Source: a virus. From it: DNA of 64,000 nt. Where the stretch lies: IMG/VR virus record IMGVR_UViG_3300042465_006773; one strand, 5' to 3'. Made by a program: the position numbers and the translations under genes. The number at the start of each line of letters is the position of its first letter. Positions within the stretch are counted from its first letter, which is position 1. Of the stretch, positions 13,981-64,000 are shown in pieces. Below the pieces are notes generated by a model. It was not told where the DNA came from. It worked only from the letters and a program-made list of their open reading frames with translations, and searched no databases.

Positions 13981-15378
13981 ATGAATACACAAAACATTCT
14001 CAAATATTGGGGTACCAAATTAGATTTGCAACTCGATTCATCAGAATATTATGATTATGAAATAGCAAAGACCGAGGTTGATTACGATGAATTGGTTTTG
14101 GATTTAGAAAATTCAATACCTTACACATCTTTAACTATTAATACTACAGGTTTAACAAATTCAGATTGTACAAGAGATACCATAAGTTTAGTTGAATATA
14201 ATAATACTGTAAATGATACTGGATATACTTATTCAGCGATTACTTGGACTTTATCGTATTCAGCGTTTACTAGTACATTTTCTAATTCTGATATTATATT
14301 AAATAATGATGTGTATGAATTAAATTTTAGTGGTAACACACACTATTTGAAAATAGATGAATTTAATAACGCACTTTCAAATCCGTTTTCATTAAATCTT
14401 AGTGATTTTAAAACAGGTGTTACGGGATATTCTTATGCTTGTGTTCAAAAATTAACAGATAACGATAATTGTTGCCCACAAGACCCCCAACTAAACGCGA
14501 AACCATGGGCATATCAAATTAATCATGGGGGTGGTAATGACAATTGTTCATATAAAGTTAAGAGAAGAACAGAAAAGGGTTGGACCATTGATTTGGTACT
14601 TAATAGAGATGATAATCCATGGTCAAGTGGTAAAACAATTTACTATTTAGGTGTTAGGGGTGAAACGGAAAATACAAAGTACTCAGATAATAATCTTTCT
14701 TTTTCTTTTACAAACGACGGTAGGATTCAATGGAGAGCATCGAGATATTCGGGAATATGTTTAACTGATAGTGGGTACACTGAATCATATTATACGTCAT
14801 CAGGACAAACACCGGTACTATGTACGAGTGGGACATCCGAAGATTTTAATATTACCATAACCTTTGAAAGAAATAAATATTTTACTGATTGTGGTATAGA
14901 AAACAATGGTGGTTGGAATGATTTAATTACAGGGAGAACATTAAACACTTCAATATCGGATTGGTTAACTGGTGCAACACCATCGTATGATGATGTAGAA
15001 ATTTTAAACAAAAAATGGGCGGAAGAAAAAAATAGAAGGTTAGGGACATTAAAAATTTATCTAAATGGTAAAAAAATTTATAAATTAAATGATTGGGAAG
15101 AGGTGATACCTTCAACAAGGGGATATCAACCTATGATTCAATCTTGGGCTGGTGGAACTCAATATTCAGGAAGCCTACATAATTTGGGTATTTCTTGTTT
15201 TATTTTTAAAAGAATCCAATATTATGAGGAACCATTAAACTATGTTAGAGTTAATCATCATTATTTGGTTGACACTAAACCAAACTATAACATTGTAGAG
15301 TGTGATGAAGATTGCGTTGATTCTACAACGATTATTATAACGGCACCAGAAAATGATTTACAATATGAATATATATAA
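13981..15378 (+). CDS. Virion structural protein, ConA/LamG-like fold probable
   Basis: Beta-rich and Cys-containing; TLKIYLNG; nine [ST]GxT motifs. Confidence 0.55.
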   Translation: MNTQNILKYWGTKLDLQLDSSEYYDYEIAKTEVDYDELVLDLENSIPYTSLTINTTGLTNSDCTRDTISLVEYNNTVNDTGYTYSAITWTLSYSAFTSTFSNSDIILNNDVYELNFSGNTHYLKIDEFNNALSNPFSLNLSDFKTGVTGYSYACVQKLTDNDNCCPQDPQLNAKPWAYQINHGGGNDNCSYKVKRRTEKGWTIDLVLNRDDNPWSSGKTIYYLGVRGETENTKYSDNNLSFSFTNDGRIQWRASRYSGICLTDSGYTESYYTSSGQTPVLCTSGTSEDFNITITFERNKYFTDCGIENNGGWNDLITGRTLNTSISDWLTGATPSYDDVEILNKKWAEEKNRRLGTLKIYLNGKKIYKLNDWEEVIPSTRGYQPMIQSWAGGTQYSGSLHNLGISCFIFKRIQYYEEPLNYVRVNHHYLVDTKPNYNIVECDEDCVDSTTIIITAPENDLQYEYI

Positions 15379-15393
15379 TAAAATAATAATATA

Positions 15394-17625
15394 ATGCCAT
15401 CAGGAATAAGAATATCGAGTATTAATTTAAGTGGTAAAACCGCCACTGTAACTTTCTTGCCATATACAGGTGGTACATTTAATTTAGGTGAAAAAACTTT
15501 ACCATTTGAATATAATTCAAGTTATCCATATGGTGTATATGAACTATATTTTGAATTGTATAATAAAACATATGAGGTAAATGCTTTGTTTCCGTCTCCT
15601 TCTATTACGCCAACAATTACAAGAACACCTTCTATTACGCCAACAATTACAAGAACACCTTCCATAACACCGTCCCCAACACCTAGTGTAATTATAGAAG
15701 ATTTAGATTTTGATGGGTTTATTAACTCCGGTTCTATTGTCATAACGTACATAGTATCAATACCAAGTGCGGTTGATTTCGATGTTACTATTGATTTTGT
15801 TCAAGAACTCCCCATAATAGGTGGTGGAAGACCTTTTTACATAAAGGGTAATATAATAATACCAAAAGGTTCTACTCAAGTTGGTACAAAATATTCGTCA
15901 TCAGAAGAGTGGGCTGATTATAGTAAATTATCAGGTGTTAGTGTTTTAACGACAACAGTAACAACACCAGGAGGTTCTAATCGATACACGGTAAAAGAAC
16001 TTATAAAATTTGGGGAGGAACCTCCTGACATTGGACCTATTCCTGATAATCAAATACCCGACCCAAATTCAATATCAATCACACCAACACCAAGTAGAAC
16101 AATTACACCAACACCGACAAGGACGATAACACCAAGTATTACACCAACACCGAGTCAATTACCTTGTGTTTGTAACGGTCCTGTGGGTATTCCTTTTGCG
16201 AACACACCTGGAAACCCAATACCAATAACAATACGAGAAAGTATTGATGGTAACTCAACGGGTTTATACCGTTATTTTCAAGGATGGTTGTCTAATTTAG
16301 TGGATGTTTGTGGTTATCCAAATGGAAACATAAGAGAAGTTTTCAATTACAGACCGAACACGTTTTCTTCAGGTCAAGGTAGTATGTATAGAACGGTAAC
16401 GGATAGTTTTTATACTAAATCTTATTCGTACATGTTGGCAATTAAAACAATACCAAGTGCAGCGCATCTTACAATTCCAAATTTTAAAATAACTGTAGGT
16501 ACGGGTGTTAAAGGTGATTGTTCTTTTGGAACATATATCATTAATAACCCATCTTTTAATACGTGGTATGTTATTAGAGTAGATGTAAGAGACATTACTT
16601 TATATGGTAACGAAATTTGGGCACACGTGGTTCAAGAAGGTAATTCAAGTTATTATTTATGTACAAATCCAGGTAATGACTCATGTTGTTATGTAACCAC
16701 ATCAGGTGTTGATGTTGGTCAAAACGATTTACCATATAATCATCCCTGTCCGTGTTCTGTAACAAGTTGTCTTGATTTAGGTGTTGTTCCTCCATATCCT
16801 ATAAATTTTTGGTGTCCAAATCCTTGGGACACACCGATTTGTACTTTAACACCAACACCATCAAGAACAATTACACCAACCGTAACACCATCAAGAACAC
16901 CAACACTAACACCATCCATCACACCAAGTAGAACTCCATCAGTAACACCATCAAGAACAATTACACCAACACCAACACCATCCATTACACCGAGTATTAC
17001 TCTATCGGTAACACCAACATCCACCAATAGTTCAACACCATCTGTTACACCAAGTGTCACACCATCAGTAACACCAACATCTTCTATTACACCAACACCA
17101 TCCATCACATCGAGTATTACTCCATCGGTAACACCAACATCTTCTATTACACCAACACCATCCATCACATCGAGTATTACTCCATCGGTAACACCAACAC
17201 CATCTATTACACCAAGTATTACACCATCAATAACACCAACATCTTCTATTACACCAACACCAAGTATTACACCAAGTATTACTTCATCAGTAACACCAAC
17301 ATCTTCTATCACCCCAAGTGTAACTCCAACAAGAACAATCACACCAACACCAACTCCTTCACCACAATACGTTCCATATTTATTTTGTAATTGTCTTGAC
17401 CCTTATAACAATTCGGGAATTGTTCCACCGTTAGAAGTTGGTGTAAGTGTTAATTTTACAATACAATCTGGTGTACAATATGGATTTATTCATACGGATG
17501 GTTATTGTTATTTTAACTGTGACCAATGGTCTGGATATACAATGACAAAAGATACATTAACAGTCAATCAATGTAGTACTCCATATTGTGTATCATTACC
17601 ATATCCTCAACCACCAAATCCTTAA
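15394..17625 (+). CDS. Fibre/decoration protein with mucin-like (T/S/P) linkers and Cys-rich domains
   Basis: Extensive TPSITPT repeats; N-terminal ~60 aa homologous to the next gene. Confidence 0.7.
15601..15660 (+). repeat. 30-bp exact tandem duplication encoding [10 protein letters not shown]
   Basis: tctattacgccaacaattacaagaacacct x2. Confidence 0.9.
16845..17364 (+). repeat. Coding low-complexity tandem repeats (TPS[IV]TP[TS])
   Basis: acacca-based repeats, including a ~60-bp exact duplication around 17070-17190. Confidence 0.9.
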
Positions 17626-17634
17626 ATAAATTAA

Positions 17635-19386
17635 ATGGATACTTTAAGAATCGTCTCAACAAACTACAATGGTCAATCGGCCGTAATTACGTTTTATCCC
17701 GACACGGGTGGGACAATTAATCTTGGTACTCAAGTTTTACCCTATGATTATGTTGCTCCATATTTTTATGGGACATATTCTTTATTCTTTCCTGCTTTTG
17801 GTAGTACATGTACTTTGTATGTTGAAGACACTTCGGGTAATTTCTTATTACAAGAAAATGGTGATTATATTTTTCAAGAAAATTATTATAAAATTATAAT
17901 AGAGTCTTTACCAAGCCCAACACCAACACCTTCTATTACACCAAGTATAACACCAACTCGTTCAGTAACACCAACACCATCTATTACTACGTCTATAACA
18001 CCAAGTAGAACTCCATCAGTAACACCAACACCATCAAGAACACCATCTATAACACCGAGTAGAACTCCATCAGTAACACCAACACCTTCTATTACACCAA
18101 GTATAACACCAACTCGTTCAGTAACACCAACACCAACTTTAACACCGACATCAACATCTTATGGTCAATCTTTTATATATTATAGGTGGCAAATAACTGA
18201 ATCTAAAACAACACCACCAAATGCAAACTGTGTTCAATCTTCTGAATTTGTTTTTCAAAAAAATGGTGTAGACCAAAGTATGTCCGGTGTTGTGGTAACA
18301 AACCCTAGTGGAAATAACCCTGTGGGTGAAGAACCATCCAAATTAATTGACGGTAGTTTAACAACAAAAGCATTAGATTTAAATTTTGTTACTAATGGTA
18401 ATGTAACGAATTTTATATTTCAATTCCCAACCGGTCAGTCGTTTGATGGGTATAGATGGGGAACCGCAAATGATGAAGAAAGTAGAGACCCAAAATCTTG
18501 GACCATATCAGGAAGTAACGATGGTGTAAATTGGAGTTTGTTACATACGGTAAGCGGATTTAATTCCACAACAACTAGAAATACGTACCAAACTCCTCAA
18601 ACTTATTTACCACCAGCAGTAAGTCCTACACCTACAGTTACAAATACACCAACACCAACAAGAACACCGTCAGTAACACCAACACCATCAACAAGTTCTA
18701 TTGTTAATTTTGTTACAGATAGTTTATTTATGAAATTAGATGCCACAAACTATACGAGTGGTACATGGTCGGATGAAACGGGTAATGGTAATAACGCAAC
18801 AATAAATGGCGCGACTTGGTTATCAACCGATGGTGGTATTTTTGATTTAGATGGAACGAATGATACCATTAGTGTTCCTCACGTATCTCAATTAAGTTTA
18901 ACCACAACGGGTCAAAAGACCGTGCAAGTTTGGGTTAAATTTGACGCACTACCATCGTCAGGTCAACAAATACCCGTATTTGGGAAGTTGTCAAGTGCAT
19001 CAGGATTTGACGGTTATTGGGGTGGTTTGTTTTCAAATACGGGTACTGTTAGATGTGTAACAAATGGTACCGGTGTCCAACAAATCAGTACTTCAACTTT
19101 AACAATCACAACAAATACTTGGTATTTGTTTACATTTATTTCACAAATAACCTCAACCGCCAATACCACAAAAGTCTATATAAATAATACTGAGTATATA
19201 ACTACAGCACATGGTGCTGATTCATATGGTGAAACAAATCCATTTTATTTAGGATGGATTGGTTCAGGTGTGTCGTCACTATATTTGAATGGTAAAATAG
19301 GTGCATGTTATTTCTATACCAAAGGTTTAAACACCACAGAGATATCAAATAATTATAATTCAACCAAATCAAAATACGGTTTGTAA
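17635..19386 (+). CDS. Fibre/adhesin with PT linkers, discoidin (F5/8C)-like domain and C-terminal LamG domain
   Basis: [17 protein letters not shown] (discoidin-like); LDA...[10 protein letters not shown]...[26 protein letters not shown] (LamG). Confidence 0.8.
17911..18159 (+). repeat. Coding PT/PS tandem repeats
   Basis: Repeated acaccaacaccttctattacaccaagtataacaccaactcgttcagta units. Confidence 0.85.
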
Positions 19387-19409
19387 AGTTTTAATATTTA
19401 TAAAATAAG

Positions 19410-20033: not shown

Positions 20034-20045
20034 ATAAAATAAAAC

Positions 20046-28536: not shown

Positions 28537-31392
28537 ATGGCAAATTCAAATAGAGTTTTTGTATCTCCTGGTGTATACACATCAGAAAAAGATTTAACTT
28601 TTGTAGCTCAAAGTGTGGGTGTAAGTACACTTGGTTTAGTAGGTGAGACCTTAAAAGGTCCTGCGTTTGAGCCGATTTTAATAACTGATTTCGACGAGTT
28701 TAAGTCCTATTTTGGAACAACGTCTCCACTTAAAGATGGGAATGGTAACCCAAAATTTGAATTGCCATATTTTGCTAAATCATACTTAGAAGAATCAAAC
28801 CAATTATTTGTTACAAGGATATTAGGTTTAACAGGATATATGCCAAGTAAAAGTTTTGGAATACAAACTATTGGTGGTGTTACTTTGGGAACTTTAAGTG
28901 GAACAACATCTGGTTTAACCATGTCCGCAACTACCAGTACAATTACAGGTAGTACAATATATTCGGAATTGTCCGATAAAATTTCAGTAGATGGAAATTA
29001 CATTACCGATTATATTGTATCTAATTTTAGTGGTAATACTTCTTCAAACCATGGTCAATGGTTTGTTATGGGAAATGTACCATCTTCAGGTACAACATCA
29101 TTAACCACCTCTTTGGAGGAAGTTTCTCCTTTGACAGGTTTAGATAACGCAAACAATAACAATAATAAAGAGTGGTATAACGTTTTAGTTAACACAGGTA
29201 ATACCGAAGTTTATTCATACTTATTTGTTTACAATAGTGGTACTTCAAGGTTTGATGTAACAAGATATACCTATAACGCAACTTTGAATAGTGACTACGA
29301 TGGAAAGATAATTTTATCTTTTAGACCGAGAGGTTCGTATGTTGGACAAACATTGAATCTTGAAGTAACTACCGATTCCAATTTTAATATCAGTGGTACT
29401 GGTTTAACATCAAATCCTTTATCTGAGTTTACTGTAAATGTAACAGGTGCAACAAGTGGAGCAAAATCTTTTACATGTAGTATGGACAGTACTTCATCAA
29501 AATACGTAACCAAAGTATTTGGTACAGACGTTTATGATAGATTAAAAGGTGATGTTCCAATTTATGTTTTCGAGTCATACCCTAACTATCTTTTAGAGGC
29601 CTACAAACAAGGTTATATCAGAGGTTTAAGTTTAACAGAAATCTATGAAAGTGAAACAAATTCTTTTAGAACAAAATGGGACACACCTGTTTCTCCAACA
29701 ATTGTTTCAGAAGTTCGTGGTGGTGAAGTTGTTGATTTATTTGACATAATCACTATTTCAGATGGAGACAGTGCTAATTTTGAAGTAAAAATATCGATAA
29801 TAAACATTAACATTGAAACAGGTGAATTTGATTTGATTGTTAGGGATTTTAATGATACCGATGATAACATTGTTGTACTTGAAAAATTCTCAAGATGTTC
29901 AATGAATCCAGATTTACCTGGATACGTTGCAAGAAAGATTGGAACCTCCGATGGAGAATATGAATTACGTTCAAGATATATTATGTTATCGATGAGTAGT
30001 AGTGCACCATCAGACGCATATCCCGCAGGATTTAAAGGGTTCGTATCAAATAGTACGTTCGGTTCAAAAACTTTGGGTTCTGTTATGTACAAAACGGAGT
30101 TCTACGATGCTGGTGATATTATGGGTTATGAATCAGATGGTACTCCTATTTTATCTTCAGGTGATAAACTAAGAAGAACATATTTCGGTTTAGGTAATCA
30201 AGTTAGTCAAGTTACATTTGATAGAGATTTATTTAAATTTAAAGGAATAAATGCAACTTCATCAACTGAAGGATTTCACTTATCAACAAACGCTTCAACT
30301 TTGACAGGTACGACGTATTTAACAACACCATATGATTTAGAAGGTCAAACAGATGCAACAAACAATAAATTAACAAATATTAACTATAGAAAGTTTACAT
30401 TAGCGGTATGTGGTGGATTTGATGGGTGGGACATTTATAGAAACGTAAGAACATATGGTGACAATTATATCTTTGGTAAACCAACATATGTAAGTGGTAA
30501 CACTTCAAATGGGGGTGTATTTAGTACTCTTTCAGGAAATTCTGATTATTACTCATACATACAAGGTATTGACACTTTTTCAAATCCAGAAGCGGTTGAT
30601 ATCAATATATTTGCGACACCAGGTATAAACTTTTTTGACCACAGTTCATTGACAGCTTACGCAATTGAAATGGTTGAAGAAGATAGAGCAGACTCTTTAT
30701 ACGTAATATCAAGTCCAAATCAAACAACAACTGATGAAATTATTGATTCATTGGATTTAGTATCAATTGATAGTAACTATTCGTCAACATATTGGCCGTG
30801 GATTCAAGTGAGAGATGTGGATAATGCAACACAATTGTTTTTACCACCAACAGGTGAAGTATTAAGGAACATTGCGTTAACCGATAATGTTTCTTTTCCA
30901 TGGTTTGCTGTGGCCGGGTATTCAAGAGGTTTAGTTAATTCAATTAAAGCATATAAGAAATTAACATTGGATGAAAGAGATGATTTGTATAAGAATAGAA
31001 TTAATCCAATCGCAACTTTTGCTGATACAGGTACTATAATTTGGGGTAACAAAACTTTACAAGTTAGAGAATCCGCTTTGGATAGAATAAACGTAAGAAG
31101 ACTTTTGTTGAGAACGAGAAAATTAATATCAGCAGTTGCGGTTAGACTTTTATTTGAACAAAATGATGAACAAGTTCGTAATGAGTTCTTAAGATTAGTT
31201 AATCCAATATTAGAATCGATAAAAAGAGAAAGAGGTGTTTACGAATTCAGAGTAACAGTATCAAACGACCCAGAGGATATTGATGCAAACACTTTGAGAG
31301 GTAAAATATATATTAAACCAACCCGCTCATTGGAATTCATTGATTTGGAATTTATAATTACACCTACAGGTGCATCTTTCGAAAATGTTTAA
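28537..31392 (+). CDS. Tail sheath protein (gp18-like)
   Basis: SPGVYTSEKDL, GETLKGP, YWPW, PWFAVAG..RG, RINPI, WGNKTLQ, LDRINVRRLL, FEQND, IKPTRSLEFI. Confidence 0.95.
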   Translation: MANSNRVFVSPGVYTSEKDLTFVAQSVGVSTLGLVGETLKGPAFEPILITDFDEFKSYFGTTSPLKDGNGNPKFELPYFAKSYLEESNQLFVTRILGLTGYMPSKSFGIQTIGGVTLGTLSGTTSGLTMSATTSTITGSTIYSELSDKISVDGNYITDYIVSNFSGNTSSNHGQWFVMGNVPSSGTTSLTTSLEEVSPLTGLDNANNNNNKEWYNVLVNTGNTEVYSYLFVYNSGTSRFDVTRYTYNATLNSDYDGKIILSFRPRGSYVGQTLNLEVTTDSNFNISGTGLTSNPLSEFTVNVTGATSGAKSFTCSMDSTSSKYVTKVFGTDVYDRLKGDVPIYVFESYPNYLLEAYKQGYIRGLSLTEIYESETNSFRTKWDTPVSPTIVSEVRGGEVVDLFDIITISDGDSANFEVKISIININIETGEFDLIVRDFNDTDDNIVVLEKFSRCSMNPDLPGYVARKIGTSDGEYELRSRYIMLSMSSSAPSDAYPAGFKGFVSNSTFGSKTLGSVMYKTEFYDAGDIMGYESDGTPILSSGDKLRRTYFGLGNQVSQVTFDRDLFKFKGINATSSTEGFHLSTNASTLTGTTYLTTPYDLEGQTDATNNKLTNINYRKFTLAVCGGFDGWDIYRNVRTYGDNYIFGKPTYVSGNTSNGGVFSTLSGNSDYYSYIQGIDTFSNPEAVDINIFATPGINFFDHSSLTAYAIEMVEEDRADSLYVISSPNQTTTDEIIDSLDLVSIDSNYSSTYWPWIQVRDVDNATQLFLPPTGEVLRNIALTDNVSFPWFAVAGYSRGLVNSIKAYKKLTLDERDDLYKNRINPIATFADTGTIIWGNKTLQVRESALDRINVRRLLLRTRKLISAVAVRLLFEQNDEQVRNEFLRLVNPILESIKRERGVYEFRVTVSNDPEDIDANTLRGKIYIKPTRSLEFIDLEFIITPTGASFENV

Positions 31393-31701: not shown

Positions 31702-32190
31702 ATGGCAGATTTATTAATGAAAATGCCGGTTCCATACGAACCGAAACGTCAGAATAGATTCATTTTGAGGTTCCCATCTTCATTGGGAATCAATGAATGG
31801 TATGTATCATCCGCGGCTAGACCTTCGGCAAAAATAAACTCGGTAGCAATACCATTTTTAAATACTTCAACGTATGTTGCTGGTAGATTTGAATGGGCTG
31901 AAATGAGAGTAACTTTCAGAGACCCAATTGGTCCATCGGCAGCACAGGCTTTAATGGAATGGTTTAGATTACACGCAGAATCTGTTACAGGTAGAATGGG
32001 TTATGCTGCCGGTTATAAAAAAGACATTGAACTAGAAATGTTAGACCCAACGGGTGTGGTTGTTGAGAAATGGATTATGCAAGGTACATTTATCACCGAT
32101 TTAAACTTCAATGAATTGGATTATTCAAGGGATGAAATCGCAACAATTACTTGTTCTTTACGTCCAGATAGATGTATTTTGGTGTACTAA
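31702..32190 (+). CDS. Tail tube protein (gp19-like)
   Basis: YEPKRQNRF, ARPS, YVAGRFEW, YKKDI.L.MLDPTG.VVEKW; follows the sheath gene. Confidence 0.9.
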   Translation: MADLLMKMPVPYEPKRQNRFILRFPSSLGINEWYVSSAARPSAKINSVAIPFLNTSTYVAGRFEWAEMRVTFRDPIGPSAAQALMEWFRLHAESVTGRMGYAAGYKKDIELEMLDPTGVVVEKWIMQGTFITDLNFNELDYSRDEIATITCSLRPDRCILVY

Positions 32191-40401: not shown

Positions 40402-40727
40402 TGAGTAGGCAGTATTTTGATAGATATCAGTTTTTTATAGAAGATGGTTCTTTTAGAGTTGTTCCCGGTATTGAAATACCAATAAAAACAACAGACAAGT
40501 ATATGTTCTTTAAAAAAGGTAGAGACAGATTAGATAGATTATCTTTGGAACATTATGGTTCACCCGTCTTTGGTTGGTTAATTCTCCAAGCTAATCCAAC
40601 TGTTGGTGGATTGGAGTTTGAGATACCTGATAATTTTGTTTTACGTATTCCTTTTCCATTAGTTATTTCTTTACAAGACTACAAAAGAAATGTAGAATTA
40701 TATAACTTGTATTATGGCGAACAATAG
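40401..40727 (+). CDS. Baseplate wedge LysM-like protein (gp53/gpX-like)
   Basis: DRLDRLSLEHYGSP.FGWLILQANP...LRIP. Confidence 0.75.
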   Translation: MSRQYFDRYQFFIEDGSFRVVPGIEIPIKTTDKYMFFKKGRDRLDRLSLEHYGSPVFGWLILQANPTVGGLEFEIPDNFVLRIPFPLVISLQDYKRNVELYNLYYGEQ

Positions 40728-43700
40728 AGATTACACGAATAGTGAAAATATTTTAGTAAAAGTTGACCAAAATAATCTTGTTTATGTTGACCCAAATAGT
40801 GTTGTAGATTCTAATGGAGAAATACAACCAAGAGGACATAAACAAGAGAACTTGGTTATGTATGTAAACTTGGAAGCCGATTTAGTACCTAGAACAGTAT
40901 TAATATCTGATAACGATAAGGGAAACACATTGACACAAATTGCTGGTGGTAATTTAAATTTTTTAAAAAATGCAACCGGAGACGGTAATTTTGATGCGAC
41001 TTGGACAGACTCATTTGTTCCAAAACCAATACAAGGTCAAGAATCGAACTATAAAGACGGTTACGATGTGACGTTTGGTGAAAATCAATTTAAAGATACT
41101 AGTGGTCAAAGTTTTGGTATTGATTCAATTAGTATTTCAATTAAAGGAGCGAATTTTGTTCCAACTGTTAATATAAGTTTTATAGATGTTAGAGGTAAAA
41201 CATTATTCGAATCGAGTGACAATTCACCGTATAGGGCATTTTTTCATTTACCGTGGCCAATATTTTATCTAACTGTAAAAGGATATTATGGGAAAGCAAT
41301 AAGGTATAGGTTACACATGACAAAATTTTCATCAAGATTCAATGAATCAAATGGAAATTTTGAAATATCAACCATTTTCGTGGGTTCAACATATGCTTGG
41401 ATGAACGACATTACATTATCTCAAATAATAACATGTCCTTACATGTTTTTAGTTGAAGAAAACAAAAACACAAGTTTTAATGAAAAAACAGGATTATATG
41501 AAAAAACAGTATCTCACTCTTCAAGAGGATATCAAATATTAAAATCTGTTTACAGACAGTACGAACAAAAGGGATTAATACCAAAAGGATTTCCTGTAAG
41601 AACATTAACAGAAATGGGTTACATAGCAGAAAGTTTGGATAAAATTTTAGAACAACAAATTTTTAGTAGTGTTGATATGGGTGTTTTTCAAGGAGTTAAA
41701 GAATTGGATGAAACAATAAATAATTACGAAAATTCCTTTAAAGCTTGGGCAAAAAAGAATTTATCCAATGAATCTGAAAAGATAAGTGAGGATGAATTTT
41801 GGTATTATACTTCATTAAAAGATAAAACAAAATTGGACACCGTAGTTGGTGATAAAAATGGAACGTTAGAATTGTTAATAAAAAATTTTAATGAAACCAT
41901 CGAAAAAAATAGATTGTTTACTCAAACACTTTCTAACAATACTACTGGTGATTTTAAAAAAATATCAATAAAAAAATTGAAAAGTGCGTCAACATATTAT
42001 AAAATACTAACTGACAAAAAAGTGGTAATTAATATTGATGGTATTTTTAACGATATCTTTCAGATAAGAAAATCATTCGAAGAACAAAGAAAAAAATTGG
42101 AAGATGATGTTGAGTTTAGAATGAATGAAATAATCAAAGGAAAAGAAGGATTTGGGTTTGAACCAACAATTAGAAATATGTTCGCTGTTTTATTAGCAAA
42201 TGCCGAAGTTTATATCAGATTAATGAAAGATGTACACAACAAAGCATTTACTGCTTCTTTAAGTAGAAAAAATTCAGTCAAAAATCTTTCAAAAGAATCC
42301 AAAGGCGAGAGTATTTATCCGTGGCCTGAAATTTCAAAACCACAACAGGGTGGTAAAATAAATGTCATGGCGTATCCTGGTGATGAACAACTTATTCATA
42401 AATTAGAATCATATGATAGTACTAAATGGCCTGAAGTTGATTTTGTGGAAGAGTACATTAAAATTAACACAAATAGAGTTGAAACAAATGTAAATAACGA
42501 ACCAACGAGAAATGATGTTAATTATGTATTTGATTCTAATGTAGACTTAAACACTATTTCACCAATATCGACGACCGATTTTATTATAAGTAGAGTGCCT
42601 TATATTGATAAAGATTATGCGTCATTTTTATATGAAATATATGAAAGAGCTAGATTTTTAACAATGTTTGATTCATTTACTAATGAAATGTTAACTGAGT
42701 TGGCAAATGAAGAGTTTAATAATATTAAAAATTCAATAGAAGAAGATGGTGATTTGATAGAAATCGCTAAAAGAATAAAATCGATAGATGATTTTATTAG
42801 GGTCGAATATCAACAAACAAAAAAAGACGAAAACGGTAAAATCGAATTAGACGAAAATAATAACCCTAAAACACAAACCGAATACAGTGGTTATTTGTTT
42901 ATCTCATCACCTTATGATAAATTTTCAAAATACAAAGACACTTTACCTACAACCAATTATTTGGTTGAAATATTAGAGGAACCTTTCAAGTTTGAAAGTT
43001 ATAATTTAAACGTTACAATAAAAGACGGTGGATTAGACAGTGATAAAATAAATAACTATTTGTTAAATTATCAACCAGAATCGTATAGAAAAAACATATA
43101 CCCATTTAATTCAAATACATATTTGGGATACATAAACAAAACAACCTTTAGTGATGATAATTTTAAATTTAACGGAATATTAAAATATGAATCATCTAAT
43201 GGTTTTATATCGTCACCAATTAATCCAAACTCATGGGTAAAATCGGGAGGAAATAATTTAACTAATTTCTTTTCAAATACGGTTAACGTGACAGGAAATA
43301 CTGTTTCAATTTTAAACACACCATATTTTCACAATCAACTTTACTATGATTTTAATAAATCCACAGTAAATGGTAAATATGCCGGTTCGGCATATCTTTT
43401 ACTTAATTCTTTACCTTTTATTGACTTAGATGACCAGATTACATTTGAAAATACTTCAATATTAACATCATCATTATTTAGAGAAATTGGTTCTACACAT
43501 TTCATTCCATATCATTTATTGTTAAAATGGGGGTCTATTTATCACAGATACAAAACACATCTTATTGACGGATATGACATTTTAGAAGGTGCAATAAATT
43601 CAAGTTATGTCACTAAACCATTGTCAGGTCAAACATTCTTTGATAATAATTCAGGATATACTTTTACAATAACCCCCAAAGTATCAACAACAACCGGTTC

Positions 43701-46506
43701 AACTCTTAATGTATCGTACACTGGTTACACAAGTGTAGGGTTGAGTCCCTTTTATCAATCAATATATAGTCAAATTGTTAATGGTTATGCTCATTACAAT
43801 AATTCATTGGGTAATTCATCATATTCTGCAAATACTTTGAATAATGGTATAATACATAGAGTTAGGACAAAAACACAAATGAACTATTGGGACGTGATAG
43901 TTGACAATACAAAGTATAAAACGGACGAAAAAACATACACTCTTTTACCATCTATTGGTGATTATTCTAGCTCAAAAATATTTGTTTATAGTAATGGTTC
44001 ATTTGATTTTGTACAACAAATTGGTTTTAGAACCTTATGGTTTTTAGATGATACTATAACTAATTCATTTACTGGTCAAACTTTTCCAACACCTTATGAA
44101 TATTTTAGAACAACAGGAAACACTTATTCTATATCCACAAATTATAAAAAAGCAATTGATTTAATTGGTACATTTAGTCCAACAATCCTCGAATATTTTG
44201 AAAGTTATTTTTTAGATTTTGCAAGTCAAAAAATGAACGACGAATTACCATATAAACCATTTAATAATTTGAATTTTCAAAAATTCCAAGATATATTAAC
44301 AAGATTAAGCGTTATCGATAAAACCAATTTACCACAAGACCCCGCATCATTGTCCAACATTGATTTACTAATTGATAATTTGAAACGAAAACAAAAAGAA
44401 GCTGCAGAAAGTATAACCAATAGTATTTTAGGTAGTAACAATCTAATACAGTTTAGTTTATCAAATCCAAAAGAAATTGACCCTTTTATATTGTATGGAA
44501 TGACAAAATCAAATCCTGATACAACATATTTAACACAATCATTTAGTTCTTCTGATATTAACTCAACAAATCAGAATTTTATAAAATTATATATTGGAGA
44601 AGATATTGACGGATATTATTTAGAGTTTTTTAGTGTTAATAATATCAAATTAACTGAAGACAATATAAAAACACATAGACCACTTGCTCAAATTTATGGT
44701 GGATATAGAAAAAATGGGGGTACAACAAGTAGGTCTTCTTTTTTAAACTACCTTAAAAACGAAATCATTATTAAAAATACCGGTGGAGATATAACCTCTA
44801 AAGGTTCTGACATTAGATTCAAACATTTTTTAACTCAACTTTTAATTAATTTTCCAAAATTAGATAGTAAAAAATCAAAAAATCCCGCGTCAAGAATTGA
44901 TATGTTTAGAGGGTATAATAGTGATAACACAAAATTAGAATTATATAACACATTCAAATCATTTAATGATAAGTGGACTTCAGGGAATTCGATTGGACAA
45001 AGATTATTGTTAGAAGAATTTTTATTTTTAGATAAAGCAAATCGGGATATTGGTGATAAATTATATCTTAACATTGATAGGTTTACGAACCTTTTGCATC
45101 CAAAAAATGTAAAACAATCGTTGTATGGGGCAATATCCATGTTAATCCAAGGTACGGGATTAGATATGAGGGCATTACCAGCATACATAAATTTTTATGG
45201 AAACAATGTTAATGTAAAAAATAAAATAAGACCCTCAAAAAAAGTTGCGTCAGATTTGTTCGGAACGTTTTTAGAAGTTGATTACCAAGAATCGACACCA
45301 AAAATCATTATTCAATTAGTTGGAAATAATTCAAAAAGATTGGATATGTCAAACAGTAAACCATATAAGTTTACAGATGATGGTTTTTATATTGGGAGTC
45401 AAAACAATAATCCTTTGTTGATAACCTCCTTAGAGAACTTTTCAAGAAATGACCTATCAAAGTCTAATCGGGTCGTTGCTTTTGAAGTTAGTTTTGGAGA
45501 CCAAAATCAAGGAATATTTAAAGGACTGACACTTGACCAATCAAGTTTAAAAAACACATCCGAATCGTTTCTTGTTTTGGAGAATTTAGCTAGGTCCGCT
45601 TCAGGTGCAGGTGTATACAATGTTGACGTTTCGTTATTTGATTACTATAAACAAGCTTCTTACAAATGCGACATAACTTCTATGGGTAATGTTATGATAC
45701 AACCAACAATGTTTTTTTATTTAAAAAATGTACCTATGTTTAGAGGTTCATATTGGATAACTGAAGTAACACATACAATAAAATCAAATAATATATCTAC
45801 AACGTTTTCTGGTACGAGAATACCGTATACATCTCTACCCGACCCAACAGATTCCTTTGTGGCCAGTTATAGAATATTATTTGATAAGATACAATCCAAA
45901 GCATCTAGAATAATAAAACAAAGAGAATCCAATAAAACTGATACACAAGAAACGGTTGTGTACCAGAAAATAAATTATATTACAGATAGGGGAGGTAAAA
46001 TTATTCAGGGTGAGCAAATAATTGACAAATTAGAAGATGTTGGTATCAATAAGTTTGGCGTACCATTTAACGGATTTAATGAACAAAGAACCATTCAAAA
46101 GGTAAGAAATAATAACCAAGTTTGGTTAAGAGGATTGGTCGTACAAATGGGTGGAACAGGGTATACAATTAATGATACAACAAGTATGAATATTGCAAAT
46201 GGTATTAAATTTTCAGACATTCAAAATACCGATTATAAGTATTTTATGGTTAATTTTCAATTATCAAGACAAATCACTGCAGAATTAATTAGAACAGCAA
46301 AAACAACTTTTAAAAATCCAAATAATAATAAAACGGTCGTTGTTAACCCAAATTATCAATTGGATTCATCTTCAGGAACGATTGTTGCTGAAGGTCCTGT
46401 TGCGATAGGTCCTATAAGTAGCACTTACGGAATTGCATTATCAAAGAAATTAATGAGTGAACTTAAACTATTTGATGGTGACGTTGTTTATTTTAATATG
46501 GAATAA
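40714..46506 (+). CDS. Very large baseplate hub protein (gp27/gpD-like termini)
   Basis: FGIDSISI, FYLTVKGYYG near the N-terminus; MGNVMIQP.MFFYL.NVPMF.GSYWITEVTH near the C-terminus; 1930 aa. Confidence 0.55.
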   Translation: MANNRDYTNSENILVKVDQNNLVYVDPNSVVDSNGEIQPRGHKQENLVMYVNLEADLVPRTVLISDNDKGNTLTQIAGGNLNFLKNATGDGNFDATWTDSFVPKPIQGQESNYKDGYDVTFGENQFKDTSGQSFGIDSISISIKGANFVPTVNISFIDVRGKTLFESSDNSPYRAFFHLPWPIFYLTVKGYYGKAIRYRLHMTKFSSRFNESNGNFEISTIFVGSTYAWMNDITLSQIITCPYMFLVEENKNTSFNEKTGLYEKTVSHSSRGYQILKSVYRQYEQKGLIPKGFPVRTLTEMGYIAESLDKILEQQIFSSVDMGVFQGVKELDETINNYENSFKAWAKKNLSNESEKISEDEFWYYTSLKDKTKLDTVVGDKNGTLELLIKNFNETIEKNRLFTQTLSNNTTGDFKKISIKKLKSASTYYKILTDKKVVINIDGIFNDIFQIRKSFEEQRKKLEDDVEFRMNEIIKGKEGFGFEPTIRNMFAVLLANAEVYIRLMKDVHNKAFTASLSRKNSVKNLSKESKGESIYPWPEISKPQQGGKINVMAYPGDEQLIHKLESYDSTKWPEVDFVEEYIKINTNRVETNVNNEPTRNDVNYVFDSNVDLNTISPISTTDFIISRVPYIDKDYASFLYEIYERARFLTMFDSFTNEMLTELANEEFNNIKNSIEEDGDLIEIAKRIKSIDDFIRVEYQQTKKDENGKIELDENNNPKTQTEYSGYLFISSPYDKFSKYKDTLPTTNYLVEILEEPFKFESYNLNVTIKDGGLDSDKINNYLLNYQPESYRKNIYPFNSNTYLGYINKTTFSDDNFKFNGILKYESSNGFISSPINPNSWVKSGGNNLTNFFSNTVNVTGNTVSILNTPYFHNQLYYDFNKSTVNGKYAGSAYLLLNSLPFIDLDDQITFENTSILTSSLFREIGSTHFIPYHLLLKWGSIYHRYKTHLIDGYDILEGAINSSYVTKPLSGQTFFDNNSGYTFTITPKVSTTTGSTLNVSYTGYTSVGLSPFYQSIYSQIVNGYAHYNNSLGNSSYSANTLNNGIIHRVRTKTQMNYWDVIVDNTKYKTDEKTYTLLPSIGDYSSSKIFVYSNGSFDFVQQIGFRTLWFLDDTITNSFTGQTFPTPYEYFRTTGNTYSISTNYKKAIDLIGTFSPTILEYFESYFLDFASQKMNDELPYKPFNNLNFQKFQDILTRLSVIDKTNLPQDPASLSNIDLLIDNLKRKQKEAAESITNSILGSNNLIQFSLSNPKEIDPFILYGMTKSNPDTTYLTQSFSSSDINSTNQNFIKLYIGEDIDGYYLEFFSVNNIKLTEDNIKTHRPLAQIYGGYRKNGGTTSRSSFLNYLKNEIIIKNTGGDITSKGSDIRFKHFLTQLLINFPKLDSKKSKNPASRIDMFRGYNSDNTKLELYNTFKSFNDKWTSGNSIGQRLLLEEFLFLDKANRDIGDKLYLNIDRFTNLLHPKNVKQSLYGAISMLIQGTGLDMRALPAYINFYGNNVNVKNKIRPSKKVASDLFGTFLEVDYQESTPKIIIQLVGNNSKRLDMSNSKPYKFTDDGFYIGSQNNNPLLITSLENFSRNDLSKSNRVVAFEVSFGDQNQGIFKGLTLDQSSLKNTSESFLVLENLARSASGAGVYNVDVSLFDYYKQASYKCDITSMGNVMIQPTMFFYLKNVPMFRGSYWITEVTHTIKSNNISTTFSGTRIPYTSLPDPTDSFVASYRILFDKIQSKASRIIKQRESNKTDTQETVVYQKINYITDRGGKIIQGEQIIDKLEDVGINKFGVPFNGFNEQRTIQKVRNNNQVWLRGLVVQMGGTGYTINDTTSMNIANGIKFSDIQNTDYKYFMVNFQLSRQITAELIRTAKTTFKNPNNNKTVVVNPNYQLDSSSGTIVAEGPVAIGPISSTYGIALSKKLMSELKLFDGDVVYFNME

Positions 46507-46752: not shown

Positions 46753-46753
46753 T

Positions 46754-57842: not shown

Positions 57843-58295
57843 ATGGCGGGAACATATGGTATAGATTTTCCATTTAGACAAAGTCTTAAAGGTGATTTTT
57901 TAATAATGACAGAAACACCTGAAAGAGAAATTCGTGCAAATTTGATACACCTTTTGTTAACAAGAAAAGGTAGTAGATATTATTTACCTGATTTTGGTAC
58001 TAGGTTATTTGAATTTATTTTTGAACCAAACGATGCGGTTACGTGGGGACAAATAGAAGATGAAATAAGAACATCGGTAAGAACATTCATTCCTAATTTA
58101 GAAATAAAATCCATAAGAGTAACTGCCGCAGACCAAGACGAAGAAGAACCCGCTAGTCCACAAGAAGATGAAGACTCGAGATTATTTAGAGTTTCAGACT
58201 ATTCAACTAAACCATACACGGCTAAAGTTAGGGTAGATTATGATATTAATAATGAACCATTTGTTTCTTCTGATTTTATAATTATAAACATTTAA
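57843..58295 (+). CDS. Baseplate wedge protein gp25/GPW-like
   Basis: GIDFPF, NLIHLLLTRKGSRY..PDFGT.L..FIFEP. Confidence 0.9.
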   Translation: MAGTYGIDFPFRQSLKGDFLIMTETPEREIRANLIHLLLTRKGSRYYLPDFGTRLFEFIFEPNDAVTWGQIEDEIRTSVRTFIPNLEIKSIRVTAADQDEEEPASPQEDEDSRLFRVSDYSTKPYTAKVRVDYDINNEPFVSSDFIIINI

Positions 58296-58296
58296 T

Positions 58297-60129: not shown

Positions 60130-60178
60130 ATTGGATTTATTTTAATTAGAAAATTGTTTATTTTCTATTTATATAGAA

Positions 60179-63100
60179 ATGCAAAAACATAGAATTTCTA
60201 CAAACATTGGGAGAGACCAAAAGGTTGTCGTTGAATTAAAAAATGATTTCGACCTTTTAGAGATATTGTCTTTAAAATTTACACAGACAGAAGCATATAC
60301 TTCCATGTGTTCTGATTATGGGGTTGTATGTGGTAGAATATTCGTAAACAATGGTTTTGGTGTACCAAATGCTAGAGTTTCTATTTTTATACCCATTTTA
60401 GATGATGATGTGAACGACCCGGTAATATCCTCATTGTACCCATATACATCTGTAACCGATAGAAATGAAAACGGTTATCGATACAACTTACTTCCAAGTA
60501 GAAAACAACACGGTGGACACGAACCAACAGGAACTTTTCCTGACCAATTAGATATTTTAACAAGAGAAGAGATTTTAGAAGTTTATGAAAAATATTATAA
60601 GTATACCGTAAAAACAAATGATGCTGGTGATTTTATGATATGGGGTGTACCTGTTGGTACACAAATCATACATGTTGATGTTGATTTATCTGATATTGGT
60701 TGTTTTTCATTGAGACCCGATGATTTTATAAGACAAGGTAGAGGTGTTGATAGTTTTAAAAATACATATTCATATAAATCATCTGATGATTTAGATTCAT
60801 TACCTCAAATAGTATCTTTTAATCAAACAATTGAAGTTTTTCCTTTTTGGGGAAATGAAGATTTATGTGAAATTGGAATAACAAGAACAGATTTTGATTT
60901 ATCAAGTCAAGGGGTAAAAGTGGAACCCAAAGCATATTTATTGGGTTCAATATATTCTGACCAAGGTAAAAACACGTTAAACAAAAATTGTCGACCAAGA
61001 AGTGCTATGGGTAGAAAGTGTGATTTAACAACTTTTGCTGCGGAGATTGAAATGATAAGATTTACTTCTTTAAAAGATTCATTGGGTAGACCAATATTAG
61101 AGACGTATCAAATAGAAGAAGATATAGACGAAGACGGTTCGTTTGTGATTCCGTTACCCATGAACATGGAATATCAGTACACAAACGAATTTGGTGAAAC
61201 AGAAATTACAAATGACCCAAATAAAGGTATACCAACATCAGCGTGTTATAGATTTAGAATTTCAGGTAAAAACAATACACTAGGTAGAGTTAGATTTACT
61301 GGTAGTTATTTGTTACCAAATATACGAGAATATGATTCTGACGTTGATGGTTCTTACGCTTTTTCTTTAGATTGGAACGATTATCCAACTGGTTCTACAA
61401 CAAACTCTGTGATTTTTAATCAAACATACGGTAGTTATTATCCTGAAGATTATTTTTTTAGGTTTACATATAATAAAGTATATACGGTAAGTTCGTATAT
61501 GGGGAGTCATTTTAAAGGTGGTAAAGACAATTATGTTGGTATAAAAGACATATCACCAAAAGAGGAAGAAGACTGTGAATCAAGTATAGTGACACCACCA
61601 ATTAATTATGGATGGAGACGATTTAGTTTTCCAATATTGTTAGCAACTGTAATTAGTATATTTGAAAGAATAATATACGGAGCATTTATTGGCGCAATAC
61701 AAGTATTAATAATTCCGTTTCAATTTCTTTATAGTATTAGAATATATATTAGGGCGTTTGGTTCAACCATTATTGACTGGAGACCTTTTGAAGTTTTTGA
61801 TTCATTAGTTATTGAACCATTACAACGATTTGGTACTGTTAATTTATCAATTGTTGTTTATCCTGAGTGTGAAACTTGTGAAGATTTTTCAAGTGAACAG
61901 ATACTTATTCCAACTCAAAGACCTGATGAACTATATTGTAAAGTCGGGGAAGGGGTTGCGGTTAGAGATACTTTAAATATTAATGGTTCTCCATATTCAC
62001 CAATATGTGACCCCGATAATACAATTGACGAGTTCATTATGTCTTCAAGTGGCTCAACGTTACCCACTTATAATTTTACGGGAATAACTTGTAACGGTAA
62101 TTCGACTGGTGAATCATTGGACCTAATATATAGTGCGAGTAATTTACCAATTAGTGGTAAAACGTATTATATTGTTTTAAAAAGTTATTTACCACATGGA
62201 AGTGCAAATGCATATGAACTTAATAGATTAAATAGTTTAGAGGTAAACACATATTCACAGTTAACAATTGACCAATTTTCTTGTGGTTCACCCACTACTC
62301 AATCCGGTTATAGGGGATATGATAATAATAATTTTGGTTGGTTAGTGTATCGATTAGGTAATAATGGAATACCCCCACAATATGATTATCCATCCCCGTG
62401 TCCAACAAATAGTTGTTTTGAAGGTCGATGGTCCATTAGTGACTTATATGTAACACCTTTTTCTCAACCGGCTTGTGCGTCTGGACAAACCCCAAACGGA
62501 ACGTGTGATTGTACCGACCCAACTTCTTCACAAAATACTTCATCAAGTATTACGTTTACTGATGGTATTTGTACAACAGTATATGATTACGTTTTATATT
62601 ATCACTCTAGTATAAGAACATGTGGCGGAAATATTGAAACAATATTAGACGACCCTAGTACTATGACATTATCAATTGATTGGTCAAATGCAGTAACAAA
62701 AAGTGCGGGAACGATAACTAGAGGATTATCCTATATGGTTGCCTTTTATTATTCAATACCCTCCGGTAACACTGCATTATCTAATGTAAGAATATCTATT
62801 GGTGATGCGACATTAGGTGAATGTTCCTATGGTGTTTATGATATACCAACACCGGTAAACAATAAGTGGTATGTATTGCGTGTTGATATATCTGATATTG
62901 AGTCTTATGGTAATTTAACATCTTATATTTCAACATCAAGTTGTATGAATTATTCTATAGGTTGTTCTGGACCATCGTCAGTAACCAATTCTTGTTGTTA
63001 TAGTTCAATAAGTGGTGATAGTGTTGGTAATTCTTCTTTAAGTGATTTTCAATGGACAGGGTTCACTTATGAAATATATGATTCTTCTCTTAAACTAACT

Positions 63101-64000
63101 CAACAATCTTTAACAGGTTCTACCGGTGATTTGTCTTTAGGTTGCGATACACAGAACACAATATATGACGAAACGATTGTTAAACAAACGTATTGTGCCT
63201 CAAATATTAATGATGATTATAACAATACAGCTTTAGTCACGGTTCAAAACGGAACATCGTGTACAAGTCTGTTACCTGTTGGACAAATATCATATAATAC
63301 GAATAGCAATCCTTGTTCGACGTGTAGTACTAGAAGTGGTTTTTCTGAATTTAGAAAAGGGACTTATACAATAATACCGGCTGCGTCTATAAATAATTGG
63401 GAATACAATTTTAAATTAATTAGAGAATATGCTAGAAGAAAACTAATCAATAAAGTTTTTTGTGAAGGTGTTGTAAATTATTCATTTATTGAAAATTGGT
63501 TAGGTGGTTCTCTTTATCTGTTTGCCTTTAAAGCAAGGGTTAGATGGGATAATGAGGAAACATTAGATTTGAACGTTAGAGGAACAAATTATTGTGAGGA
63601 TTTATTGTATTATAAGGTAAGTGAAAAAACATCTGGCGAACCCGTTAAAAGGTTTTATTATAGGTCCACTAAGTGGGATGGTTCGTCTTTTCAATCTACA
63701 GTAAGTAACGGAACAACATTCAGTACACTAAGACACCCAACAACAATTATGGATTTGGGACCAAGAGATGAATTTATAAAAGAAATATGTGTCGACCCAT
63801 CTTTAGACCCTAATTGTTCGGTTGTTCGAAGTATTGGACCAACATCTTTTCAAAACTTTAAGGAAATTTTCGGGCTTTACATTAACTATAGATTAGATAC
63901 TAATAACACATTTGAATATAGAGATTTTTTTCAAAATAATGGATTTAATTCGTATCTCCCATTTAATACAACAAAAGAAATATTAAATGGAGACGTTTTA
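60179..64000 (+). CDS. Large Cys-rich baseplate/fibre-associated protein (partial, at least 1274 aa)
   Basis: ATG at 60179 after TATTTATA; begins MQKHRISTNIG...DYGVVCGRIFVNNGFGVPNARVSIFIP; absent from the track, consistent with being open to the window end; spot-translated segments are in frame. Confidence 0.75.
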   Translation, partial: MQKHRISTNIGRDQKVVVELKNDFDLLEILSLKFTQTEAYTSMCSDYGVVCGRIFVNNGFGVPNARVSIFIPILDDDVNDPVISSLYPYTSVTDRNENGYRYNLLPSRKQHGGHEPTGTFPDQLDILTREEILEVYEKYYKYTVKTNDAGDFMIWGVPVGTQIIHVDVDLSDIGCFSLRPDDFIRQGRGVDSFKNTYSYKSSDDLDSLPQIVSFNQTIEVFPFWGNEDLCEIGITRTDFDLSSQGVKVEPKAYLLGSIYSDQGKNTLNKNCRPRSAMGRKCDLTTFAAEIEMIRFTSLKDSLGRPILETYQIEEDIDEDGSFVIPLPMNMEYQYTNEFGETEITNDPNKGIPTSACYRFRISGKNNTLGRVRFTGSYLLPNIREYDSDVDGSYAFSLDWNDYPTGSTTNSVIFNQTYGSYYPEDYFFRFTYNKVYTVSSYMGSHFKGGKDNYVGIKDISPKEEEDCESSIVTPPINYGWRRFSFPILLATVISIFERIIYGAFIGAIQVLIIPFQFLYSIRIYIRAFGSTIIDWRPFEVFDSLVIEPLQRFGTVNLSIVVYPECETCEDFSSEQILIPTQRPDELYCKVGEGVAVRDTLNINGSPYSPICDPDNTIDEFIMSSSGSTLPTYNFTGITCNGNSTGESLDLIYSASNLPISGKTYYIVLKSYLPHGSANAYELNRLNSLEVNTYSQLTIDQFSCGSPTTQSGYRGYDNNNFGWLVYRLGNNGIPPQYDYPSPCPTNSCFEGRWSISDLYVTPFSQPACASGQTPNGTCDCTDPTSSQNTSSSITFTDGICTTVYDYVLYYHSSIRTCGGNIETILDDPSTMTLSIDWSNAVTKSAGTITRGLSYMVAFYYSIPSGNTALSNVRISIGDATLGECSYGVYDIPTPVNNKWYVLRVDISDIESYGNLTSYISTSSCMNYSIGCSGPSSVTNSCCYSSISGDSVGNSSLSDFQWTGFTYEIYDSSLKLTQQSLTGSTGDLSLGCDTQNTIYDETIVKQTYCASNINDDYNNTALVTVQNGTSCTSLLPVGQISYNTNSNPCSTCSTRSGFSEFRKGTYTIIPAASINNWEYNFKLIREYARRKLINKVFCEGVVNYSFIENWLGGSLYLFAFKARVRWDNEETLDLNVRGTNYCEDLLYYKVSEKTSGEPVKRFYYRSTKWDGSSFQSTVSNGTTFSTLRHPTTIMDLGPRDEFIKEICVDPSLDPNCSVVRSIGPTSFQNFKEIFGLYINYRLDTNNTFEYRDFFQNNGFNSYLPFNTTKEILNGDVL

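Follow-up and report, generated by a model that had tools for sequence, protein, structure and literature searches.

Does a phage mark the proteins of its own particle with a short sequence tag for the attachment of sugars? This question is raised by the stretch of DNA analysed here (the window, 64,000 nucleotides), which lies on the minus strand of the 91,965-bp viral record IMGVR_UViG_3300042465_006773 from IMG/VR, a contig of ~92 kb with a GC content of ~30% that is estimated by CheckV to be ~30% complete. The source is an uncultured jumbo phage from a lake with a T4-like set of structural and replication genes, and its host is probably a Gram-negative member of the Bacteroidota. In the original prediction, a recurrent [S/T]-G-x-T motif in its virion proteins was proposed to be the acceptor sequon for a glycan coat on the tail. 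The observation underlying this proposal is confirmed here, and the signal is larger than had been stated. The reading that is favoured on the basis of the sequence data is that Phi-[ST]-G-x-T-Phi would mark those virion regions that lie beyond the conserved cores for modification, with O-glycosylation by phage enzymes as the most plausible kind, and a probability of roughly 0.45 is assigned to it.

The nearest cultured phage is Microcystis phage Mel-JY01, with a sheath identity of only 33%. Sheath relatives in IMG/VR number at least 589; 80 loci with sheath identities of 69-99% on contigs of up to 333 kb were kept, and the genomes of this clade that were searched are 30-75% complete. In the 92-kb contig, the strict motif [ST]GxT was observed 108 times, compared with ~23 occurrences expected from local shuffles of 40 residues. 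An unbiased scan of dipeptide, tripeptide and gapped patterns in all open reading frames (ORFs), performed with tandem repeats masked, returned TGxT (58 versus 11.6 expected) and SGxT (50 versus 11.4) as the two most over-represented patterns. These patterns also head the ranking in two relatives (245 and 232 kb), and a third relative contains 151 [ST]GxT motifs where 35.6 are expected. The excess persists when shuffling is confined to windows of 40 or 20 residues (p ≤0.0005 for the proteins encoded at 13981, 28537, 40714 and 60179) and is concentrated in ~10 proteins, in which the motif occurs at 5-10 times the chance level. Of all glycines in the enriched proteins, 14.5% lie within the motif; the corresponding values are 1.6% for T4 virion proteins, 0.3% for Mel-JY01 virion proteins and 1.6% for cargo proteins of the type IX secretion system (T9SS) of Flavobacteriales.

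The four proteins named above are encoded as follows:

13981..15378, plus strand: lectin-like protein of 465 amino acids, 9 motifs (0.6-0.7 expected) at residues 56, 80, 117, 145, 216, 264, 274, 317 and 330
28537..31392, plus strand: tail sheath protein of 951 amino acids, Pfam Phage_sheath_1 and Phage_sheath_1C at residues 670-941, phrog_23
40714..46506, plus strand: protein of 1930 amino acids at the hub/central-spike position, 8 motifs (1.75 expected), 7 of them at residues 860-1134
60179..64000, plus strand: baseplate-region protein of 1534 amino acids following the gp25-like and gp6-like genes, N-terminal 1274 amino acids in the window

The earlier counts of nine motifs in the 13981 protein, of eight in the hub protein with seven in one central segment, and of at least eight in the 60179 ORF were all reproduced; the last protein, which ends at window coordinate 64783, has 8 motifs in its window part and 11 over its full length (2.2 expected). 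For the sheath, nine motifs had been reported, none of them in the conserved C-terminal core. The conserved C-terminal domains defined by Pfam (to residue 951) are indeed free of motifs, but the count is 10 when overlapping matches are included (2.2 expected), spanning residues 121-653. The further copies listed in four other proteins proved to be at chance level, namely 3 versus 1-2 for 15394, 1 versus 2.4 for 17635, 2 versus 0.85 for 19410 and 2 versus 1.1 for 35554. Beyond the window on the same contig, 9 motifs were counted in 64783-66543, 3 in 66543-67367, 12 in 67367-68539 and 19 in 69485-74869, as well as 4 in the major capsid protein and 6 in a protein of 457 amino acids. No motif was found in the portal, protease, scaffold, tube (31702-32190), gp25-like, gp6-like (58297-60129, phrog_219, adjacent to the 60179 gene), gp13-like and terminase proteins. 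The enzymes as a group contain 6 motifs with 4.4 expected, and the contrast drawn earlier with PolB (1 motif), NrdA (0) and the SNF2 helicase (0) was recovered.

An origin of this excess in composition, low complexity, shared repeats or a signal at the DNA level is extremely improbable. The enriched proteins are rich in Ser, Thr and Gly, the contig contains long TPSx repeats, and a collagen-like fibre inflates the counts in LR756501, a distant phage described below. However, the excess is kept under the local shuffles of 20 and 40 residues and under repeat masking, by which an artefact of composition or low complexity is ruled out; the enrichment beyond composition that the original prediction had asked to be verified is thereby borne out. 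Moreover, T9SS proteins, which are also rich in Ser, Thr and Gly, reach an observed-to-expected ratio of 1.2 only. In an all-against-all BLAST comparison, the sole detectable similarity among the motif-rich proteins is a domain of ~160 residues shared by the 15394-17625 protein (residues 285-446) and the 60179 ORF (residues 795-954) with 32-35% identity. A single homologous domain as the source of the motif is ruled out by this comparison, the one shared domain being unrelated, and the proposal of a convergently installed linear motif is supported. Codon use within the motif is near background, so that the signal is located at the protein level and no fixed DNA word is involved. The exception is the Ser codon AGT, which is raised (53% versus 25%) and may reflect the interchange of Ser and Thr via single base changes.

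The residue requirements of the motif are narrow. Position 4 is specifically Thr, as neither [ST]GxS (29 versus 23 expected) nor [ST]Gx[VI] (24 versus 36) is enriched, and position 1 is specifically Ser or Thr, as [DN]GxT (15 versus 18) is not enriched. The pairwise excesses of SG, TG and GxT are small next to that of the full motif. In the flanks, hydrophobic residues occupy positions -1 and +4 and charged residues are few, and x is almost never Pro, Asp or Glu. These features bear on an alternative, which is considered possible though rather doubtful, that the motif is a lineage-specific structural habit: a tight Phi-T-G-x-T-Phi beta-turn or hairpin (type II'/I'-like, with a cross-strand Thr/Ser pair) would be reused in new beta-rich surface domains and would not be modified. 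Two-residue hairpin turns of types II' and I' have Gly at the first turn position followed by a polar residue, flanks of beta-branched Thr and an outer hydrophobic pair, and the hydrophobic positions -1 and +4, the depletion of charges and the Gly at position 2 suit such a turn. A generic beta-turn is nevertheless disfavoured, because it should tolerate [ST]GxS, [ST]Gx[VI] and [DN]GxT. The preference of type II'/I' turns is universal and degenerate, and cannot explain a tenfold lineage-specific excess or the exclusion of Asp/Asn at position 1 and of Ser or Val/Ile at position 4.

Within the particle, the motif is located in the insertion domain of the capsid protein, in the sheath outside its conserved core, in the lectin-like 13981 protein, in the hub region and in baseplate and fibre proteins. 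Most of the sheath motifs lie in an insert of ~150 residues that is missing from the Mel-JY01 sheath, and at aligned positions the latter has other residues (e.g. NAAN in place of SGNT). Likewise, all four motifs of the major capsid protein are found in its variable insertion domain, and the Mel-JY01 capsid differs at the aligned sites. That the homologous folds of Mel-JY01 manage without the motif argues against the structural habit. The motif-bearing regions probably face outward, as judged from domain position. Since the pattern scan was unbiased and the architecture of capsid and sheath is known, there is independent support for a peripheral location.

The 13981 protein stands beside the tail genes, which suggests a role in the virion. 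Its AlphaFold2 model (predicted local distance difference test score, pLDDT, of 81) has a lectin-like jelly-roll fold, which was matched by Foldseek to CBM40 and clostridial-neurotoxin Hc-like folds (E ~3e-7), and the gene product is predicted to be probably a carbohydrate-binding virion protein. The resemblance is to CBM40 sialic-acid-binding modules and to the jelly-roll half of the receptor-binding domains of clostridial neurotoxins.

Motif sites were mapped on two predicted structures, as had been suggested, with the expectation of exposed loops. Among the 21 sites on the AlphaFold2 models of the 13981 and 67367 proteins the contexts are mixed: some sites lie in loops, others at the starts, ends or interior of strands or at helix ends. 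The model of the 67367 protein (pLDDT 60) is too poor for firm site mapping. A strand, two-residue turn and strand, as required by the structural habit, are predicted at site 117 of the 13981 protein and at site 141 of the 67367 protein, the latter on the poor model; the mixed contexts of the sites overall speak against it. The two readings are not mutually exclusive, as a transferase could read the tip of a hairpin.

In order to place the excess against a baseline, observed and expected numbers of [ST]GxT were compared for control genomes and protein sets (observed / expected):

T4: 24 / 20
Mel-JY01, whole genome: 41 / 56
Phapecoctavirus ukendt: 26 / 24
Flavobacterium phage immuto: 86 / 53
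crAss001: 23 / 16
Tenacibaculum phage PTm1: 41 / 35
LR756508 (partial): 51 / 36
P-TIM68: 111 / 70
Bacterial loci, 1.1 Mb: 231 / 164
Bacteroidota T9SS cargo and neighbouring ORFs, 58,000 amino acids: 89 / 74.5
Bacteroidota loci: 57 / 40.6

Overall, the controls range from 0.7 to 1.6 times the expectation, with a baseline of ~1.0-1.6 times versus 5-10 times in the proteins of the clade. A general property of myovirus virion proteins is ruled out by T4 and Mel-JY01, and a trait common to Bacteroidota phages or to surface proteins of the hosts by immuto, crAss001, PTm1, the T9SS cargo and the Bacteroidota loci. A lineage-specific motif, not one general to beta-rich virion proteins, is therefore supported. 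A structural habit should be general; it is disfavoured by the lack of an excess in T4 and Mel-JY01, in four phage records associated with Bacteroidota and in surface proteins of Flavobacteriales.

The evolution of individual sites was followed among the relatives. The sheath orthologues encoded on 77 related contigs each have between 6 and 14 motifs, and for 52 homologues of the 13981 protein the mean is 6.2, with 0.54 expected. Single sites are gained and lost among relatives while the counts stay high. In two of three families, the motif residues are conserved no better than other Ser/Thr, Gly or Thr residues, and glycines of the motif are less conserved than those elsewhere, which is not what a structural habit would lead one to expect. 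The 67367 family, in which many motifs are nearly invariant, is an exception that suits the structural habit. The same applies to the replacements at lost sites in orthologues (position 1 to Asn, Asp or Pro, Gly to Asn, Asp, Ala or Ser, and Thr to Ile, Val or Ser), which are as in ordinary turns and strands. The turnover of sites at steady counts points to selection on the number or density of sites and not on fixed structural positions, and a modification tag therefore fits better than a folding requirement.

A second lineage shows the same excess. LR756501 is an uncultured phage whose record of 735 kb was covered over its whole length, and its capsid and terminase are 21-27% identical to those of the clade (partial BLAST alignments; capsid ~21%). 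Many of its large proteins are motif-rich (e.g. 17 versus 1.2, 12 versus 0.9 and 15 versus 1.9 expected); its counts are inflated by one collagen-like fibre and some FN3-like repeats, and these were set aside. Most of these proteins are unrelated by BLAST to those of the clade, and the motif has the same flanking context. That the same excess arose in a distant lineage sharing glycosyltransferase genes again argues against a structural habit. Among the genes common to the clade and LR756501 and absent in eight control phages, glycan genes form the largest annotated group: a homologue of the glycosyltransferase encoded at 9598 in the window (32-35% identity), GT2 enzymes and FkbM methyltransferases. 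For one GT2 gene of the clade, homologues were found only in LR756501 and LR756503 among 50,697 phage records.

That the clade is rich in glycosyltransferases is supported further by an operon in the relative IMGVR_UViG_3300008116_000055 (G2):

99318-111427 of G2, minus strand: glycan operon of 14 genes including a WecB-type UDP-GlcNAc 2-epimerase, at least four GT2 enzymes and two FkbM methyltransferases

Weaker GT-D-like and GT1 matches are also present in this operon, and the whole G2 record is free of genes for a lipid carrier or a flippase. No initiating phosphoglycosyl transferase (Bac_transf), Wzx flippase or Wzy_C/PglL-type enzyme was detected in five records, in searches in which control genomes were matched. 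The phage thus has no lipid-carrier export route of its own, and the result points to a soluble acceptor for glycan assembly.

With the motif read as a modification tag, the following course is the most plausible. The tag would be installed by point substitution in loops and at strand ends of virion parts that probably face outward. A phage-encoded cytoplasmic enzyme, most likely one of the many glycosyltransferases of the clade, would read the tag and modify one of its hydroxyls, further transferases and sugar methyltransferases would extend the sugar, and the particle would in this way become coated with glycans. A broader picture is put forward tentatively: two distantly related huge-phage lineages, whose hosts are reported or predicted to be Bacteroidota, may carry a mobile 'writer plus address' system. 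In both, cytoplasmic phage glycosyltransferases would read Phi-[ST]-G-x-T-Phi as an undescribed O-glycosylation sequon, sown independently in each lineage by point mutation over exposed parts of capsid, sheath, baseplate and fibres. In the resulting virion-wide glycan coat, the pattern of sites would change over evolution in the manner of the glycan shields known from animal viruses.

As candidates for enzymes acting on the tag, three glycosyltransferases had been assigned in the window:

9598..10866, minus strand: GT-B type glycosyltransferase, phrog_7162 'glycosyltransferase' (E 2.9e-41), RfaG/GT1-like by protein-atlas features
5469..6554, minus strand: possible GT-B glycosyltransferase on weak evidence, language-model neighbours carrying PF00534
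4675..5454, minus strand: possible GT2 (GT-A) glycosyltransferase on weak evidence, PF00535 at 22.2 bits, under the cut-off of 23.3

A clear family match is found for 9598 only, and this protein is a candidate writer or glycan builder. The assignment is less secure for 4675, which falls below the Pfam cut-off and matches a glycosyltransferase in the PDB (6p61, E 0.008), and for 5469, which is GT1-like by language-model features only and has no sequence match in Pfam, PHROG, NCBIfam or PDB. The link of the motif to the three genes is circumstantial, and a tie between any particular transferase and the motif is not supported.

Several points weigh against a tag for glycosylation. The flank pattern, together with the Gly at position 2 and the frequent Asn, Thr or Ser at x, resembles a tight beta-hairpin, and 2-3 of the 21 modelled sites are tight two-residue beta-hairpins, one of the two models being poor (pLDDT 60). 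The number of motifs was itself one of the criteria by which proteins were assigned to the peripheral set. Phapecoctavirus encodes homologues of 9598 (26% identity) and shows no excess of the motif. The glycosyltransferase genes in the window are grouped with genes for a dUTPase, PhoH and a sigma-factor-like protein, and the 9598 homologue of LR756501 lies ~1.5 kb from the ThyA gene; such neighbourhoods would also fit nucleotide or DNA chemistry. Finally, the co-occurrence of motif and glycosyltransferase genes rests on two independent lineages only. The co-occurrence that the original prediction had suggested as a check is thus seen in LR756501, which shares glycosyltransferase genes with the clade, and fails in Phapecoctavirus ukendt. 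The proposed acceptor sequon for a glycan coat is strengthened by the restriction of the motif to variable virion regions, its lineage specificity and the wealth of glycosyltransferases in the clade; the part of the proposal that concerned the writer enzyme is not supported, and several of the proteins listed are at chance level. The parallel that the original prediction drew with Ser-Gly as an O-glycan acceptor context in proteoglycans is a putative one.

In Escherichia phage ukendt, four tandem annotated glycosyltransferase genes are located beside primase/helicase genes (NC_052661.1, 145545-148689). At least two of these four paralogues are distant homologues of 9598. With no motif excess in this genome, the presence of 9598 is ruled out as a sufficient marker of the motif. 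The lack of 9598 in G2 was considered as a natural knock-out and found unusable, as the position expected for the gene probably falls beyond the end of the contig.

Paralogues of the Phapecoctavirus type beside primase/helicase would suit DNA glycosylation (10.1101/2023.12.21.572611). Tet_JBP was not found in the clade genomes or in LR756501, a weak result since the controls of that search were also without a match, and the sole ThyA-family gene scores as a true thymidylate synthase (TIGR03284, 305 bits). Therefore, no hydroxymethyl acceptor pathway for DNA glycosylation is visible. The thymidylate synthase (430-441 amino acids) is encoded at 205666-206958 in the relative G1 and at 116922-118247 in G2, and was matched in two or three pieces; it carries an internal insertion. 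In the literature searched, neither an [ST]GxT tag nor a function for the Phapecoctavirus glycosyltransferases was found to be described.

The tag might also be read by a protein other than a glycosyltransferase, leading to phosphorylation, acylation or cross-linking, or to the non-covalent binding of a protein (decoration, cement or chaperone) at exposed virion surfaces, and this is regarded as unlikely. The specificity of the motif, its restriction to virion proteins, its turnover and its lineage specificity apply to such a reader equally and do not identify the chemistry, and it would be consistent with the presence of 9598 homologues in ukendt and with the fact that no glycosyltransferase is tied to the motif. 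On the other hand, no kinase, acyltransferase or decoration protein turned up in the analysis, in which the shared gene set was only partly annotated, and the largest annotated group of that set consists of the glycan genes 9598, GT2 and FkbM common to both motif-positive lineages.

A glycosylation tag would resemble known sequon-directed systems in its short acceptor motif, in the turnover of sites at kept density and in the disfavour of Pro at x. Known sequons are N-x-S/T and, for the general O-glycosylation of Bacteroidota, D-[ST]-[AILVMT]; the motif matches neither of the two. As for a sequon, the short motif is over-represented in a target set and not in non-targets, with the target set partly defined by the motif itself. 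The O-glycosylation system of Bacteroidota modifies its exported substrates in the periplasm, while the assembly of virions is cytoplasmic, and no gene for an oligosaccharyltransferase or a Wzy_C/PglL-type enzyme was found in the five records searched here.

The closest phage precedent is the O-glycosylation of mycobacteriophage virions by phage-encoded glycosyltransferases (Freeman et al. 2023, as cited in PMC12619734), with glycans reported in the latter source to sit at the C-termini of capsid and tail-tube subunits. The likeness to these phages (Che8 type) consists in the phage-encoded glycosyltransferases and in the idea of a cytoplasmic glycosylation of virion proteins by which the particle is coated. 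The differences are that here the tube is without the motif, the capsid motifs lie in an internal insertion domain, the sites are internal and distributed over ~10 proteins, the implied tag has four residues, the probable host is a Gram-negative member of the Bacteroidota, and the glycosylation is a predicted one. Autonomous glycosylation is also described for giant viruses such as chloroviruses and mimivirus (PMC4691112, PMC7019647). Similar to the phages described here, these have large genomes, their own clusters of multiple glycosyltransferases with sugar-modifying enzymes, no use of host secretory machinery, and capsid or fibre proteins as targets. They differ in being eukaryotic viruses with unrelated enzymes, and chlorovirus glycans are attached by N-linkage to sequons other than the canonical one.

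Moraphages form a lineage of large phages from aquatic habitats, for which Bacteroidota are predicted as hosts, and are comparable in their freshwater origin and large genomes (PMC12619734). By gene content, the only basis of comparison, they agree with the clade in glutamine synthetase, sigma factor, dUTPase, gp13-, gp25- and gp6-like proteins, sheath, tube and several glycosyltransferases. Four core orthogroups of putative glycosyltransferases have been described for them with targets left open, and the [ST]GxT motif is not mentioned in the searched text of that source.

If the tag is a site of sugar attachment, it would be, to our knowledge, the first sequon to be defined for protein glycosylation by phage enzymes, and the first example of a glycan coat over the whole virion among phages that infect Gram-negative bacteria. 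Glycosylated phages in metagenomes could then be found purely by sequence, the large glycosyltransferase sets of many huge phages would be explained, and a compact pair of tag and enzyme would be on offer for glyco-engineering. Even if it is unmodified, a motif that accounts for a seventh of all glycines in the virion proteins rich in it and recurs in a distant clade is an unusual case of convergent motif evolution.

The other genes of the window comprise the following groups:

Structural genes: sheath (assigned by Pfam and PHROG), tube, gp25-like, gp6-like, gp13-like and baseplate hub proteins
Replication and other genes: PolB, SNF2 helicase, DnaB-type helicase, UvsX, SSB, NrdA/B, PhoH, dUTPase and sigma-factor-like protein

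The protein encoded at 40714 has no match in Pfam or PHROG; the ORF preceding it is small, and its orthologue in G1 matches T4 gp53.

Tandem tetrapeptide repeats of the type (Thr-Pro-Ser-[Val/Ile/Arg/Leu])n, up to ~370 residues long, occur in four proteins of the structural block:

15394..19386, plus strand: two structural-block proteins with long (Thr-Pro-Ser-x)n mucin-like stalks, [ST]GxT at chance level
15595-15693, 16096-16158 and 16845-17358 of the window: TPSx repeats in ORF 15394
17914-18159 and 18637-18714 of the window: TPSx repeats in ORF 17635
69485-74869 and 74939-76247, beyond the window end: ORFs with TPSx repeats

Contig-wide, the pattern SxTP was counted 176 times with 22 expected. 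The stalks are a variable accessory, since G1 lacks them, and could plausibly provide a second glycan acceptor.

A glutamine-synthetase-like gene is encoded at 204172-205302 in G1, at 113860-114984 in G2 and at 149783-150778 in LR756501, and is 54-56% identical across the two distant lineages. Its closest match in bacterial metagenome-assembled genomes (61%) is on a 24.8-kb 'Flavobacteriaceae' contig from Lake Baikal, which may be phage DNA binned into such a genome.

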